Shown here: positions 11,825 to 17,427 of the stretch, piece by piece | Layout: every line of letters starts with the position of its first letter | Position numbering within the stretch: position 1 is the stretch's first letter | Assembly (NCBI RefSeq): GCF_003334305.1 | Contig: NZ_QOWS01000040.1 | Length of the DNA stretch: 17,427 bases | Origin: Escherichia coli | GTDB taxonomy: Bacteria; Pseudomonadota; Gammaproteobacteria; Enterobacterales; Enterobacteriaceae | Direction: 5' to 3' (one strand) | Translations under genes and position numbers: made by a program | The notes under the pieces: generated by a model | The model's input: only the letters and a program-made list of their open reading frames with translations | The model's database searches: none | Told to the model about the DNA's origin: nothing

Positions 11825-13294
11825 ATGCATATCGATTCGACTGAAAAAAATAATAAACAAAAGTTGGGCTTGCTTGCGCTAACATCCATTGTCGTGAGCT
11901 CGATGATCGGCAGCGGCGTTGACGGACTCCCCCAGAATATGGCGGAGAATTCTGCCGTGGGCCCGGTGGCGATAGCATGGATAGTCTGTGGTATCGGCAT
12001 GTTTTTCATCTCCAGAACTTTTATCGTGCTGTCAAACATTAGACCTGATCTCCAGTCAGGAGTTTATATGTATGCCCGGGAAGGGTTCGGCCGATTTACG
12101 GCATTTAACGTCGCCTGGGGCTACTGGCTGATGACTATATTCAGCAACGTCGCCTTTGCCATTATGGTGATGGATACGCTGAATTATTTCTTACCAGGTG
12201 ATTTCAAGGGAGGGAACAATATTCCTTCCGTTATCGGTGCCTCTTTGCTGATATGGGGATTCAACTTTTTAGTCCTCTCCGGTACCCGCATTGCCGGGTC
12301 GATTAACATCGTCGGCACGCTGGCCAAACTGATCCCGCTGGTGGCCTTTATTATTATTCTCATGCTGTTTATGAAGTACACCACGTTCGCAGATAACGTC
12401 TGGGGGCACAGCGCGAGTAAGGCCAGTCAGGACCTAGGCTCTATTTTCTCACAGGTAACTTCACCGCTTAGCGTGGCACTCTGGAGCTTCATCGGCGTTG
12501 AGGGGGCTGTCGCTCTTTCCGGTCGGGCCAAAAATAAACGCGACGTGGGTAAAGCCACATTAATTGGCTTCGTTGTATCACTGATTATCTGTCTGCTGGT
12601 CTCCATCCTACCGTTTGGCGTGCTGACTCAACATGAGCTCAGCGCAATTCCAACCCCATCCACCGCCGGTATTCTGAAGATTGTTGTCGGTGAATGGGGG
12701 AAGATTATGATTATCTTGGGGGTGCTGATTTCGGTGCTTACCAGCTGGCTGGCGTGGACCATCATCTGCGCCGAACTGCCTATGGTGGCCGCGCAGAACG
12801 GCACATTCCCGAAACCGTTCAGCAAAAAAAATGTGAAGGGTTCGGCCTCGGTTTCGCTTTATATAAGCAGTGCGTTTATGCAAATCGTCGTACTTCTGGT
12901 CTACTTTTCTAACGATGCCTGGCTTGCAATGCTGGCTATCTCTACCCTGACCGTTTTACCTGCGTATTTAATGACCACGGCATACCTGTTTAAACTATGT
13001 ATTAGCGGCGAGTATGCCAGCTATACCACGAATCACAGCCGCAGCGCCGCGCTGGTCAGCAGTATTATCGGCTTTGTATTCTGCCTGTTTATGTTCTACG
13101 CCAGTGAAATCAAATATCTGGCGATGGTTCCGGTGCTGCTTACGCTGGGCGTGCCCCTGTTTATCTGGGCAAGAAAAAAAGACGATCGCGCAGATAAAAT
13201 ATTTACGCTACGCGAACTGGCATTTTTTATTTTACTGCTGGTCCTCGACATCATTGTTTTTATTCTACTGCATTATAAAACGATACATTTTTAG
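11825..13294 (+). CDS. APC-superfamily antiporter, ArcD/YdgI-type (paralogue 1)
   Basis: 489-aa polytopic membrane protein. Motifs shared with E. coli YdgI/ArcD: KLGLLALTSIVVSSMIGSG…LPQNMA, IRPDL…YAREGFG, NVAWGYWLM, LWSFIGVEGAV.LSGRAKNKRDVGKATL. The TM1 motif is GSGVDGLPQN instead of the usual G.GVFSLPQN. A 195-bp AT-rich upstream region separates it from the IS1 end; the RBS is weak (AAGAG). Confidence 0.85.
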   Translation: MHIDSTEKNNKQKLGLLALTSIVVSSMIGSGVDGLPQNMAENSAVGPVAIAWIVCGIGMFFISRTFIVLSNIRPDLQSGVYMYAREGFGRFTAFNVAWGYWLMTIFSNVAFAIMVMDTLNYFLPGDFKGGNNIPSVIGASLLIWGFNFLVLSGTRIAGSINIVGTLAKLIPLVAFIIILMLFMKYTTFADNVWGHSASKASQDLGSIFSQVTSPLSVALWSFIGVEGAVALSGRAKNKRDVGKATLIGFVVSLIICLLVSILPFGVLTQHELSAIPTPSTAGILKIVVGEWGKIMIILGVLISVLTSWLAWTIICAELPMVAAQNGTFPKPFSKKNVKGSASVSLYISSAFMQIVVLLVYFSNDAWLAMLAISTLTVLPAYLMTTAYLFKLCISGEYASYTTNHSRSAALVSSIIGFVFCLFMFYASEIKYLAMVPVLLTLGVPLFIWARKKDDRADKIFTLRELAFFILLLVLDIIVFILLHYKTIHF

Positions 13295-13398
13295 TCCAGA
13301 TTAATTCACAGCAAGTTAAGGTGACGATAATGTCTGTTTCTTGGGCATGACATCCTCACAGTTAAATACTATCTGAACAGTAACAGTGGAGACACCTA

Positions 13399-15768
13399 AT
13401 GAAATTTAACCACAATCTTTTATTTATTTCCTCACAATATCTTGATGGCGACAACCCTTCGCAGCAGGTACTGGAAGAGCTTCAAACCGAACTCGCGGAA
13501 CGCGGTTTTAAAATTCATATCACGCACCAGATCTCTGATGGATTAAAAATCATCGAAAAAAGCCCCCAATACAGCGGGATTGGTTTTTACTGGGAGCCAG
13601 ACAATCCGACCTTTGCAGAAGAGCTACAGCACTTTATCAGCATATTCCGCAAAAGAAATGCCACGACGCCGCTGATAATTTTCTCAGAACAGAATATTAC
13701 CGATCGTATCCCACTCGACGTCTTAAAAGAGGTCAGCGAATATGTTTATCTGTTCTCTGAATCCGCAGCCTTCACTGCCAATCGACTGTACTCCTTAGTC
13801 CACCGCTATGCGGATAAGCTTCTTCCTCCCTACTTTAAAACCCTTAAGGACTTTACCGAGGACGGTGACTATTACTGGGACTGCCCGGGGCATATGGGGG
13901 GAATGGCCTATCTGAAACATCCTGTTGGCATTGAGTTCATTAACTTCTTTGGCGAAAACATGATGCGCGCTGATATTGGCGTGGCTACCGCGGAGATGGG
14001 GGATTATCTGATCCACGCCGGACCGCCTAAAAAATCGGAAGAAATTGCGGCCCGACTGTTTGGCTCTGATTGGACCTTCTACGGTGTTTCCGGCTCATCG
14101 GGGTCGAACCGTATTGTGGCCCAGGCTGCGGTTGGCGCAGATGAAATTGCCATTATTGACCGAAATTGCCACAAGTCACTTAATCATGGCCTGACCTTGT
14201 CTCAGGCAAGGCCGGTTTACCTGAAACCTACCCGCAACGCGTGGGGGCTGATTGGGCCTATCCCGACCGGACGCCTGAAGAAGGCCAGTATTGATGCGCT
14301 GGTGGCAAACAGCCGACTAGCATCTGGTGCGGTCAGCCAGTCCCCGTCCTACGCCGTGGTAACCAACTGCACCTATGATGGCTTCTGTTATAACGTGAAC
14401 GATGTAGTCAGACACCTGGGTGAAAGCGCACCGCGCATCCATTTTGATGAAGCATGGTATGCCTATGCGCGTTTCCATCCGCTATACCAGAGTCGCTATG
14501 CAATGGACGCGGAGGAAACGCCAAATCGTCCAACCCTATTCGCCGTACAGTCCACCCATAAAATGCTGCCCTCACTCTCCATGGCCTCAATGATTCATGT
14601 GAAGAAAAGCGATCGCGCGCCGCTTAATTTCGATGACTTTAACGATGCCTTTATGATGCACGGCACGACCTCACCCTACTACCCGATCATTGCATCAATT
14701 GATGTGGCAGTAAGCATGATGGAGGGTGAATCCGGTTATTCGCTTGTGCAGGAGTCAATTGAAGAAGCGATTGCCTTCCGTAAAGCCGTGGTCAGCGTCA
14801 AGCGCCAGCTCCAGGAGCAGGAAGGTGGTGACGCCTGGTTCTTCGATGTGCTTCAGCCAACCGAAGTGCAGGACAGCGATTCTGGGCAGCGATACAGTTT
14901 TGAAGAGGCACCCGTATCGCTGCTGAGCCACAGCGCCGACTGCTGGTCGCTGCGCTCCGGTGAGCGCTGGCACGGTTTTGCCGATGATGATCTGGTCGAA
15001 ACCAACAGTATGCTCGATCCAGTAAAAGTGACCCTGACTTGTCCAGGGATCGGCCCGAAGGGAGAATACCAGAAAAACGGTATTCCGGGATATTTGCTGA
15101 CCCGTTTTCTCGATGACCGTCGCATTGAAATTGCCCGTACTGGTGACTACACCGTGCTGATCCTGTTCTCCGTCGGCATCACCAAAGGCAAATGGGGAAC
15201 TCTGATTGAAAGCCTGCTGGCCTTTAAAAAGCATTACGACAATGACGATCTGGCCACAGATGCTATCCCGTCGCTGAAAGCGCATTCTCCACACTACGAC
15301 ACGCTAACCCTCAAGGAGCTATGTCAGATAATGCATGAAAAAATGGATGAGCTGGAGCTGATGTCGCATATCAACGACGCGGTAAACACCGATCCGGAAC
15401 CAGTTATGACCCCGGCAGAAGCCTATCAGAAAGTCGTACGCTACAAAACCGAGCATATCCGGCTGGATGATTTTAGCGGCAGAATTGCCGCCAGCATGCT
15501 CGTCCCATATCCCCCAGGCATTCCTGTACTGATGCCGGGCGAACGGATGCCGCAAGGTAACAAGGGCATTATTGGCTATCTGCGCGCCCTGCAGGAATTC
15601 GATAAGCAATTCCCAGGTTTTGAACATGAGATCCAGGGCGTTAACGTCGATGAAAACGGGGACTTCTGGGTCAGAGCGATTGTGGAAGAAGAACGCGATG
15701 GGCAGTCGCTACCCGGCCACATAACCTTTAAACGCCAGGTCTCTGGTATTAAAAAGGGCCGCCAGTAG
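13399..15768 (+). CDS. PLP-dependent Orn/Lys/Arg decarboxylase, fold-type I, AdiA-like (789 aa), substrate unknown
   Basis: Shares blocks with E. coli AdiA and CadA: GSSGSNR, DRNCHKSL, PTRNA, VVTNCTYDG, HFDEAWYAYARF, STHKM (putative PLP lysine, codon at 14560-14562), MMHGTTSPYYPI, DVAVSMMEG, WHGF, MLDPVKVTL, FSVGITKGKWGTL, VPYPPGIPVLMPGE, FPGFEHEIQG. N-terminal wing-like domain present. GGAG RBS 8 nt upstream. About 34 aa longer than AdiA, with a C-terminal extension. Confidence 0.9.
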   Translation: MKFNHNLLFISSQYLDGDNPSQQVLEELQTELAERGFKIHITHQISDGLKIIEKSPQYSGIGFYWEPDNPTFAEELQHFISIFRKRNATTPLIIFSEQNITDRIPLDVLKEVSEYVYLFSESAAFTANRLYSLVHRYADKLLPPYFKTLKDFTEDGDYYWDCPGHMGGMAYLKHPVGIEFINFFGENMMRADIGVATAEMGDYLIHAGPPKKSEEIAARLFGSDWTFYGVSGSSGSNRIVAQAAVGADEIAIIDRNCHKSLNHGLTLSQARPVYLKPTRNAWGLIGPIPTGRLKKASIDALVANSRLASGAVSQSPSYAVVTNCTYDGFCYNVNDVVRHLGESAPRIHFDEAWYAYARFHPLYQSRYAMDAEETPNRPTLFAVQSTHKMLPSLSMASMIHVKKSDRAPLNFDDFNDAFMMHGTTSPYYPIIASIDVAVSMMEGESGYSLVQESIEEAIAFRKAVVSVKRQLQEQEGGDAWFFDVLQPTEVQDSDSGQRYSFEEAPVSLLSHSADCWSLRSGERWHGFADDDLVETNSMLDPVKVTLTCPGIGPKGEYQKNGIPGYLLTRFLDDRRIEIARTGDYTVLILFSVGITKGKWGTLIESLLAFKKHYDNDDLATDAIPSLKAHSPHYDTLTLKELCQIMHEKMDELELMSHINDAVNTDPEPVMTPAEAYQKVVRYKTEHIRLDDFSGRIAASMLVPYPPGIPVLMPGERMPQGNKGIIGYLRALQEFDKQFPGFEHEIQGVNVDENGDFWVRAIVEEERDGQSLPGHITFKRQVSGIKKGRQ

Positions 15769-15786
15769 GCGGGGGAAAGAACAATA

Positions 15787-15812
15787 CCGTCGGATCGCCT
15801 GCAATCCGACGG
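15787..15812 (+). other. Perfect 9-bp hairpin in the decarboxylase-antiporter intergenic region (possible attenuator or transcript-processing/stability element)
   Basis: CCGTCGGAT-cgcctgca-ATCCGACGG, 18 bp after the decarboxylase stop and 30 bp before the second antiporter ATG. No T-run follows, so it is not a classical full terminator. Confidence 0.4.
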
Positions 15813-15842
15813 CAATATTATAGAATAGCTGAGGGAAACGTT

Positions 15843-17342
15843 ATGGCAGAGCAATCTTCAGATGTAAAAAATAGTGACAATAGCGCCGGAGGACATAAGC
15901 TGGGGCTTATATCCCTCATCGCTATTGTCGTTAGCTCCATGCTGGGAGGCGGCGTTTTCAGTCTGCCGCAAAACACGGCGGCCTCTTCTGCACTAGGGCC
16001 AGTAATCATTGCATGGATTATTGCCGGGATCGGTATTTATTTTATCGCAAACTCCTTTCGCGTACTATCAGATCTGCGCCCGGACCTTCAGGCTGGAGTG
16101 TATATGTATGCCCAGGAAGGTTTTGGTTCCTTTATTGGCTTTAACGTCGCCTGGGGCTACTGGCTGATGACCGCATTTGGCAACGTTGCCTTTGCGGTAA
16201 TTTTAATGGATGCTTTTAATCAGTTTATGCCGGGGGTTTTTACGGATGGTAATAATCTGAACTCCATTATCTGCGGCTCAGTGCTGATCTGGGGCTATAA
16301 TTTTCTTGTTCTGTCCGGGACGAAAGTGGCCGGATTTGTTAACACCTTGGGAACCATCGCCAAGCTCGTCCCTCTGATCCTATTCGTATTACTGCTGGGT
16401 GTGCTGATCGATTATTCGGACCTGTTTAAAAATTTTTGGGGAGAATCACCCGCGATCCTCAGTGGCAACGGAAATGACGCCGCACCAGTATCGCTGCTGT
16501 CTCAGATTCTGGCACCGATGACCGTAACGCTCTGGGCCTTTATTGGCGTCGAGGGAGCGGTTGTTCTATCCGGACGTGCCAAAAATAAACAGGACGTAGG
16601 GAAAGCCACACTGATCGGCTTTCTGCTGGCGCTAATTATTTATATGTTAATGTCCATTCTGCCGTTCGGTGTAATGCCTCAGGCAGAACTAGCGCAGGTC
16701 AGTAACCCCTCTACCGCAGGCGTGCTCGCCCACGTTGTCGGTCAGTGGGGCGACTGGCTGATGAGCGCGGGGCTGATTATTTCTGTTCTGGCCGGCTGGC
16801 TTGCCTGGACCATGCTATGCGCTGAAATACCGATGGTAGCAGGACAGAAAGGCGCTTTCCCGCGCGCGTTTGCCCGAACGAACAGTAAACAGGCGGCCAA
16901 TGTGTCACTGTGGGTTAGTAGCTTTGTGATGCAGGCGGCCATGTTACTTGTTTATTTTTCAAATAATGCTTGGACCACCATGTATAATATCAGTGCGCTG
17001 ATGGTTGTTCCGGCCTATATTACCACCACGCTGTATCTGACCAGTATTTGCAGAAACGGAAAATATGATCAGTATGCAAAAAAAGGCCGCAGGCTGGCTT
17101 TGTCCAGCGGTGTTTTAGGCTCGCTATTCTGTCTGTTTATTCTTTACGCCAGCCAGATTGAGTATGTTGCATTAATTCCTATCCTGTTGACCTGTGGTCT
17201 GCCGGTCTTTATCTGGTCAAGAAAAGAAAAAAATGATGGTCAGCCGATATTTACCAAAAAAGAGCTGATTTATCTGATTATGCTGTTGCTGTGCGATATT
17301 ATCGTCGTTGCCCTGTTTATTGGTGGATATTTAAAGGTATAA
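15843..17342 (+). CDS. APC-superfamily antiporter, ArcD/YdgI-type (paralogue 2)
   Basis: 499-aa polytopic membrane protein with the canonical TM1 motif SSMLGGGVFSLPQNTA and FIGVEGAVVLSGRAKNKQDVGKATL. Roughly 55-60% identical to paralogue 1 by eye. GAGGGA RBS upstream. Confidence 0.9.
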   Translation: MAEQSSDVKNSDNSAGGHKLGLISLIAIVVSSMLGGGVFSLPQNTAASSALGPVIIAWIIAGIGIYFIANSFRVLSDLRPDLQAGVYMYAQEGFGSFIGFNVAWGYWLMTAFGNVAFAVILMDAFNQFMPGVFTDGNNLNSIICGSVLIWGYNFLVLSGTKVAGFVNTLGTIAKLVPLILFVLLLGVLIDYSDLFKNFWGESPAILSGNGNDAAPVSLLSQILAPMTVTLWAFIGVEGAVVLSGRAKNKQDVGKATLIGFLLALIIYMLMSILPFGVMPQAELAQVSNPSTAGVLAHVVGQWGDWLMSAGLIISVLAGWLAWTMLCAEIPMVAGQKGAFPRAFARTNSKQAANVSLWVSSFVMQAAMLLVYFSNNAWTTMYNISALMVVPAYITTTLYLTSICRNGKYDQYAKKGRRLALSSGVLGSLFCLFILYASQIEYVALIPILLTCGLPVFIWSRKEKNDGQPIFTKKELIYLIMLLLCDIIVVALFIGGYLKV

Positions 17343-17372
17343 GTCCGAGTTAAATCTTTACTGGGCTAGCAA

Positions 17373-17404
17373 TGCCGCCTTTTAAACAAGAAGGGCGGCA
17401 ATCT
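17373..17404 (+). terminator. Possible terminator hairpin after the second antiporter gene
   Basis: TGCCGCC-(14-nt loop)-GGCGGCA inverted repeat about 30 bp after the stop. Weak T-tract (aatctt), so confidence is low. Confidence 0.25.
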
Positions 17405-17427
17405 TACTGAAATTAGTATGCTGCAAA

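Follow-up and report, generated by a model that had tools for sequence, protein, structure and literature searches.

In this Escherichia coli locus a perfect hairpin lies between a decarboxylase gene and the antiporter gene that follows it, and no run of U adjoins its stem. What would such a structure do inside an apparent operon: end some of the transcription on one strand or the other, protect or process the mRNA, serve the start of the next gene, or act as a palindrome in DNA? We approached this question through the window (the whole 17,427-nt stretch of DNA that was analysed), through orthologous loci from other bacteria and through the complete genomes of E. coli.

Genes and operon layout

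The plus strand of the window encodes antiporter 1 (11825..13294), the decarboxylase (13399..15768) and antiporter 2 (15843..17342). The decarboxylase, a 789-aa fold-I PLP protein of the Orn/Lys/Arg family, has AdiA as its best model; it reaches 740 bits against this model, under the cut-off of 1167, and scores well under the cut-offs of AdiA, CadA, LdcC and SpeF. Antiporter 2 (499 aa) is a basic amino acid/polyamine antiporter that matches TIGR00905 above cut-off with 493 bits, as does its paralogue antiporter 1 (55% identical, also above cut-off). For the two antiporters, the arginine-ornithine and histidine-histamine antiporter models come next, with scores under their cut-offs. Searches by protein accession or keywords found no publications on the operon. 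Co-transcription of the three genes as one operon is assumed here from the 74-nt spacing and the conserved gene order.

A further plus-strand hairpin, UGCCGCCUUUU-AAACAA-GAAGGGCGGCA (17373..17400; -17.4 kcal/mol), is found at the operon end, 3' of antiporter 2. It likewise has no clean U-run in its tail (AUCUUACUGA), and transcripts of the E. coli operon may also end by way of Rho, or at a protective hairpin that has no U-tract.

Structure and stability of the intercistronic hairpin

The first-pass annotation had described a perfect 9-bp stem with an 8-nt loop in the 74-bp spacer, and this description was confirmed. The stem-loop CGCCUGCA occupies 15787..15812 on the plus strand, with nine perfect pairs between its arms CCGTCGGAT (15787-15795) and ATCCGACGG (15804-15812) and the loop CGCCTGCA between them (15796-15803). 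The spacer extends from the decarboxylase stop codon TAG, which ends at 15768, to the ATG of antiporter 2 at 15843, and the stem begins 19 nt past the stop codon. The absence of a T-run, also claimed at first pass, was borne out by the sequence 3' of the stem, CAATATTATAGAATAG, which has no U-run and received no plus-strand call in the terminator scan.

The folding-energy calculation that had been proposed as a check gave -14.2 kcal/mol for the isolated hairpin (z -4.6), a value equalled by none of 200 shuffles. When the whole 74-nt spacer was shuffled with dinucleotides preserved, an equally good simple hairpin appeared once in 200 trials. The hairpin pattern occurs once in the window against an expectation of 0.01. 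Ranked by stability among the uninterrupted plus-strand hairpins of the 17.4-kb window it takes fifth place, and it is one of only two that are intergenic.

Folded in 200-400 nt of native context, the stem pairs with a probability of 0.90-0.99. Cutting the RNA exactly past the stop codon gives preference to a competing fold (MFE -19.1; stem probability ~0), in which GCGGG at 15769-15773 pairs with CCUGC of the hairpin loop. In the native context GCGGG pairs instead with CCGCC across the decarboxylase stop codon. The resulting small GC hairpin, CCGCC-AGUA-GGCGG (15759..15772, plus strand, in a 121-nt fold), holds the stop codon UAG in its loop and, by tying up GCGGG, removes the rival of the main hairpin. 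This small hairpin belongs to the E. coli sequence only, and its minus strand was also called terminator-like, with the tail CCCTTTTTAA.

Downstream of the main stem, an A/U-rich single-stranded linker, CAAUAUUAUAGAAUAGC, leads into the Shine-Dalgarno sequence GAGGGA (15831-15836) of antiporter 2, the two together occupying 15813..15842 on the plus strand; the hairpin makes no contact with this Shine-Dalgarno sequence. An RNase III site needs about two helical turns (~20 bp) of double-stranded RNA, for which the stem is too short, with nine pairs on the plus strand and 13 on the minus strand, and 8-13 in most orthologues. No Rfam family was found at the site; the lone overlap was Xoo8 on the minus strand, at 15.5 bits where the gathering score is 90. 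In the linker, AUAUU (15815-15819) matches the loose RNase E motif RN|WUU (defined in PMC5927463), a match of little information.

Recurrence in orthologous loci

Orthologues were collected by one scan of species-representative genomes and twelve look-ups of nearer and farther relatives. The tally comprises 26 distinct decarboxylase-antiporter loci from several phyla, of which 21 have a spacer of at least 57 nt and five a spacer of 11-56 nt. A homologue of antiporter 2 lies 3' of the decarboxylase in all 26, and the full antiporter-decarboxylase-antiporter trio was found in Enterobacterales, Commensalibacter and Alcaligenaceae. A Photobacterium relative (L096), whose next gene is not an antiporter gene, was left out of the tally.

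A significant stem-loop occupies the equivalent place in 20 or 21 of the 21 spacers of at least 57 nt. At most three of 200 shuffles were as good in E. coli, Citrobacter, Klebsiella, Proteus faecis, Proteus terrae, Providencia, Hafnia, the Enterobacter-plasmid type, Commensalibacter, two Bordetella species, an Alcaligenaceae MAG, Victivallis, Acinetobacter, Pseudomonas and four metagenomic relatives. The Crenobacter spacer holds a nested structure (0/200 shuffles as good), and that of Alcaligenes is borderline (10/200). The closest relative, a metagenomic sequence with 87% protein identity, carries a 40-nt hairpin of -28.6 kcal/mol. No hairpin was found in Salmonella diarizonae, Orbus, Ignatzschineria or two MAGs, the five loci whose spacers measure 11-56 nt, and because of these hairpin-less orthologues the structure must be regarded as dispensable.

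The position of the hairpin is better kept than its sequence. In most loci the stem starts 5-30 nt past the stop codon, and the 3' end usually lies 25-34 nt upstream of the antiporter ATG. Stem sequences are unrelated between clades, and both arms (8-13 bp or more) and loops (3-24 nt) vary in length across orthologues with the pairing kept. As a control we took the spacer between antiporter 1 and the decarboxylase in the same operons (78-122 nt), and found no consistent hairpin; for instance, the best hairpin of the 104-nt E. coli control spacer has -3.8 kcal/mol, with 81 of 100 shuffles as good. Past antiporter 2, a strong hairpin of the kind expected at an operon end was seen in 17 of the 19 loci. 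Since hairpins are common after genes generally, recurrence alone cannot tell a decay barrier from weak termination.

In Proteus penneri ATCC 33519 (L054, ~6500-6520) a stretch of poly-C close to where the antiporter 2 homologue begins puts the reading frame out of register with that of Proteus terrae, probably through an error of assembly or at the homopolymer.

Covariation and strand preference

A core of 9 bp, G/A-T-C-C/T-G-G-C/T-A/G-C, could be aligned across seven enterobacterial hairpins. The usable alignment is this trimmed core (A3) only, given that full-spacer MAFFT and untrimmed RNAalifold alignments misaligned the E. coli and Providencia stems; no convincing alignment was obtained between the E. 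coli hairpin and the Klebsiella/Proteus helix. Within the core, changes on both sides were seen in six of the nine pairs, a count with some circularity in it, since the arms had been selected as hairpins before they were aligned, and 96.8% of cells are paired, as compared to 20-34% with slid partners. The check named in the first-pass annotation, that orthologues keep the stem through compensatory changes, thus came out positive for both the long spacers and the core. The robust reading of these numbers is that pairing persists through sequence turnover.

A preference for one strand is suggested by the G-U pairs. Sense-strand G-U pairs make the plus-strand fold better by at least 4 kcal/mol in seven loci, and the minus-strand fold is better by this margin in two loci only (E. 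coli and B. trematum). Across the family, the signal thus favours the sense RNA. Taken from these sequence comparisons, the best explanation would be that the hairpin is maintained by selection for pairing and position, not for sequence.

Termination on either strand

The U-tract of an intrinsic terminator was defined as at least five U in 8 nt, starting 0-2 nt past the stem. The plus-strand hairpin has the GC-rich stem of an intrinsic terminator (six of nine pairs are G-C), and also its short loop and its placement 19 nt past the stop codon. The U-tract is missing on this strand: the tail CAAUAUUAUAG contains none, the scan made no plus-strand call, and the TransTermHP-style tail score, -2.54, lies near the background of the window (median -1.9, with 19% of positions reaching -2.5). 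A stem with a terminator-like tail occurs at this site on the minus strand only. Among the 18 scored intercistronic hairpins, tail scores range from -1.5 to -4.0 (best -3.99) and none has a canonical U-tract. Of the 17 operon-end hairpins, seven score between -4.15 and -5.7; the two sets are parted weakly by their tail scores (Mann-Whitney p ~0.05). The earlier claim that the hairpin looks less like a terminator is therefore supported, the lack of a U-tract being itself conserved among the 18.

A contrasting case is provided by the Photobacterium relative, where a His-tRNA-synthetase-like gene comes after the decarboxylase and the post-stop hairpin is found with UUUCUUUUUUGG. On this contrast, the absence of a U-tract goes with a downstream antiporter that needs expression. 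The Photobacterium kishitanii relative is 62% identical, and its arrangement (L096, 2501-6175) beside a His-tRNA-synthetase-like gene is typical of histidine decarboxylase clusters.

The minus-strand form, which the first-pass annotation passed over, is both stronger and terminator-like. Read on this strand, the same palindrome (15785..15814) forms 13 pairs including G-U, with a 4-nt loop and the tail UUGUUCUUUC. At -20.7 kcal/mol (up to -22.8), as compared to -14.2 on the plus strand, it is the strongest hairpin in the window, and with its T-rich tail TTGTTCTTTC (tail score -4.1) it is the top match of the terminator scan. The flank upstream of the stem in orthologues is often T-rich and not A-rich (for instance, GTTTTTTAT in L085 and Hafnia), and the other enterics carry T-runs there in place of A-runs. 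A minus-strand terminator was rejected as a family feature, as it is not conserved in the orthologues; the terminator-like minus reading is, on the sequences compared, a peculiarity of the E. coli copy.

Alternative explanations

On the plus strand, the imperfect U-containing tail could still stop a fraction of polymerases, so that the hairpin would act as a leaky intrinsic terminator or attenuator that yields a shorter antiporter 1-decarboxylase transcript and less read-through antiporter 2 mRNA. We hold this to be unlikely, with some evidence in its favour. In GC content and size the stem resembles that of a terminator, several relatives have moderately U/C-rich tails (B. trematum CGUUUCCUUCUC, Bordetella UUGUCUCC, the Enterobacter type UCUAUUUUACUU), 14 of the 18 hairpins pass a lenient tail threshold of -2.5 at their best offset, and the K-12 cadB-cadA spacer has a hairpin followed by UUUUUU within an operon. 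Against it, CAA directly adjoins the E. coli stem, the near-background tail score and the missing scan call apply to this very copy, and a run of at least four U beside the stem occurs in no orthologue except L090. Termination on the minus strand would require antisense transcription from inside or beyond antiporter 2, e.g. from the downstream IS1, that is halted before the decarboxylase gene. The strength of the minus-strand fold and its tail score make it the best hairpin of the window in this orientation, and the small terminator-like hairpin at 15772-15759 comes next to it; yet the window scan detected no minus-strand promoter-like site to the right of the hairpin, no minus-strand gene ends there, and the often T-rich upstream flanks and usually better plus-strand folds of the orthologues show the minus-strand property, and not the hairpin, to be specific to E. 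coli. Very little likelihood is attached to antisense termination.

It is rather improbable that the hairpin serves antiporter 2 from the 5' side, either by capping its mRNA after an RNase E cut in the upstream A/U-rich stretch or after initiation at a weak internal promoter (papBA/ompA-like), or as a structure at a fixed distance that tunes ribosome loading. Such a role would fit the fairly constant distance of 25-34 nt between hairpin and ATG in most loci despite unrelated sequences, as well as the A/U-rich stretch between stop codon and hairpin in enterics, and protective 5' structures following RNase E cleavage are documented (PMC5927463). However, the constant distance possibly reflects short spacers and shared ancestry, the Shine-Dalgarno sequence is untouched by the hairpin, and an internal sigma-70 promoter was rejected, as the promoter scan of the spacer found none and the best manual candidate, CTGCAA-16-TAGAAT, matches 8/12. 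Very unlikely, too, is a palindrome that works as DNA (an operator for a dimeric regulator, a recombination site or a REP-like element) or a leftover with no function. Two perfectly inverted 9-bp arms set 8 bp apart have a plausible operator geometry, and the module is mobile and IS1-flanked. An RNA helix fits better, given that arm sequence, arm length and loop length vary freely with the pairing kept and with G-U pairs on the sense strand, which disfavours an operator; the element is single-copy in E. coli and has no Rfam match, and recurrence in nearly every long spacer argues against a neutral leftover. An integron attC-like site was dropped, the R'/R'' core motifs not being visible. Finally, the U-less hairpin might be a dedicated regulatory device of decarboxylase/antiporter acid-stress operons that actively sets the enzyme:transporter ratio and is not a passive exonuclease stop, which we regard as doubtful. 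Equally doubtful are the forms that such a device could take, a condition-dependent attenuator (responding to pH, translation or Rho) or a docking site for a specific RNA-binding protein. Such a device would be in line with the distance of about 25-34 nt to the antiporter start across Proteobacteria and Lentisphaerae, and with the similar layout of gadB-gadC.

A putative decay barrier between enzyme and transporter

The explanation with the most support, whose chances we consider about even, is that the hairpin is transcribed between the two cistrons, does not terminate transcription and belongs with the protective 3' structures of the malE-malF type. RNA polymerase would mostly read through it into antiporter 2. 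Once the RNA had been cut by an endonuclease, or had ended prematurely, downstream of the hairpin, PNPase and RNase II would digest it in the 3'-to-5' direction and stall at the hairpin, and the antiporter 1-decarboxylase segment of the mRNA would outlive the antiporter 2 segment. The soluble multimeric decarboxylase would then be made in excess over the membrane transporter. We infer all three components of this scheme: transcription within one operon, the exonuclease block and the changed expression ratio.

Conserved protective structures are known to reshape about 12% of E. coli polycistronic mRNAs and to drive differential decay within operons (Dar and Sorek 2018, PMC5927463), and 3' ends that arise by Rho or by processing are marked and protected by stable stem-loops lacking U-rich tails (PMC6061677). 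The hairpin has the structure of the protective 3' class, a stable RNA fold directly 3' of the segment proposed to be stabilised with no U-rich tail, and also the conservation, with its presence in 20 or 21 of the 21 spacers of at least 57 nt and covariation in six of nine pairs. The decay-barrier reading has against it the stronger minus-strand form in E. coli, the five hairpin-less orthologues and an E. coli allele, G15812A, described below. The proposal made at first pass, that the hairpin is less a terminator than an RNA processing or stability element, or a partial attenuator that sets the enzyme-to-transporter ratio, is partly supported; the conserved stem and the conserved lack of a U-tract argue against a normal terminator, and would fit a stability element and a partial attenuator alike.

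If the hairpin does set this ratio, the locus would offer a clean and widely conserved case of an operon tuned from within by RNA structure, carried by an uncharacterised mobile IS1-flanked module of acid-stress type, many carriers of which are extraintestinal clinical isolates, and also a useful natural part for tuning expression ratios. The hairpin itself is real, selected and ordinary: it joins an already established class, and the general understanding of such elements is unchanged by it.

Comparison with known systems

Like the malE-malF element and the structures of Dar and Sorek, the hairpin is a stable stem-loop within an operon, located just 3' of the gene for which the higher abundance is expected, conserved in related species and proposed to block PNPase/RNase II after downstream cleavage (PMC5927463). 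It differs in that the malE-malF element is a multi-copy REP and the hairpin is single-copy, and in that most Dar-Sorek structures lie ~107 nt inside the downstream coding region (PMC5927463), whereas the present one lies in the spacer. With the hairpins at Rho-dependent 3' ends (PMC6061677) it shares stability and the absence of a following uridine-rich sequence. Hairpins of that class mark transcript ends and are closely followed by rut sites; in the present case, the 30 nt past the stem form an A-rich ribosome-binding region that leads into a translated gene, and we infer a poor Rho substrate in this region unless translation fails. Stabilising 5' hairpins of the papBA and ompA type could similarly cap a downstream mRNA near an intercistronic processing region (PMC5927463), in contrast to the present hairpin, which lies 30 nt upstream of the ATG beside a candidate RNase E motif.

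A neighbouring case was found in E. coli K-12. The gadB-gadC spacer (L091 1691-1845, minus strand of the record) contains a perfect 12-bp hairpin, UGUCCCGAAACG-AACC-CGUUUCGGGACA, that begins 20 nt past the gadB stop codon and has -19.9 kcal/mol, with one of 200 shuffles as good and a tail, AUUUCC, that has no U-run; no description of this hairpin was found in the searchable literature. Both operons thus have a decarboxylase gene, a U-less hairpin ~20 nt past its stop codon and an antiporter gene. The GadB and GadC families and the sequence are unrelated and the spacer is 155 nt long, so that any functional link is by analogy only. The K-12 cadB-cadA spacer (L092 2319-2397) has a hairpin of -20.1 kcal/mol followed by UUUUUU inside the cadBA operon. 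This intra-operon hairpin is terminator-like, and its genes are in the opposite order, with the antiporter before the decarboxylase.

Mobile module and distribution in E. coli

The window matches E. coli A7 at 100%. Its gene order is fecIRABCDE, IS3 and IS1 remnants and the three-gene cluster, with a further IS1 just past the window end. The antiporter-decarboxylase-antiporter cluster is bracketed by IS1 in the window (10879-17427) and also in L001 (12380-19683) and L093 (13881-21184). In ATCC 11775 the same IS1-flanked cluster is found in another island, beside a tRNA-Phe gene and together with Qat and SLATT genes. Altogether, the cluster was seen in two chromosomal contexts (the fecIRABCDE side in A7 and the tRNA-Phe island in ATCC 11775) and in one plasmid copy, and it behaves like a mobile module of the composite-transposon type.

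The cluster is carried by 508 of 5426 complete E. coli genomes (~9%), once per genome. A 38-nt query at the hairpin, searched at an E-value of at most 10, found one site in each island-positive genome (median 1, maximum 2) and no match in the other 4918 complete genomes, a search that strongly diverged copies would escape. A dispersed palindrome of the REP/BIME type was ruled out, the element being single-copy and confined to the module. Two alleles of the hairpin were distinguished, the window sequence in 490 records and G15812A in 18, the latter having lost the outermost stem pair. In the record of the identical strain A7, fecI (window 235-756) is annotated as frameshifted or a pseudogene, and fecR and fecABCDE are intact.
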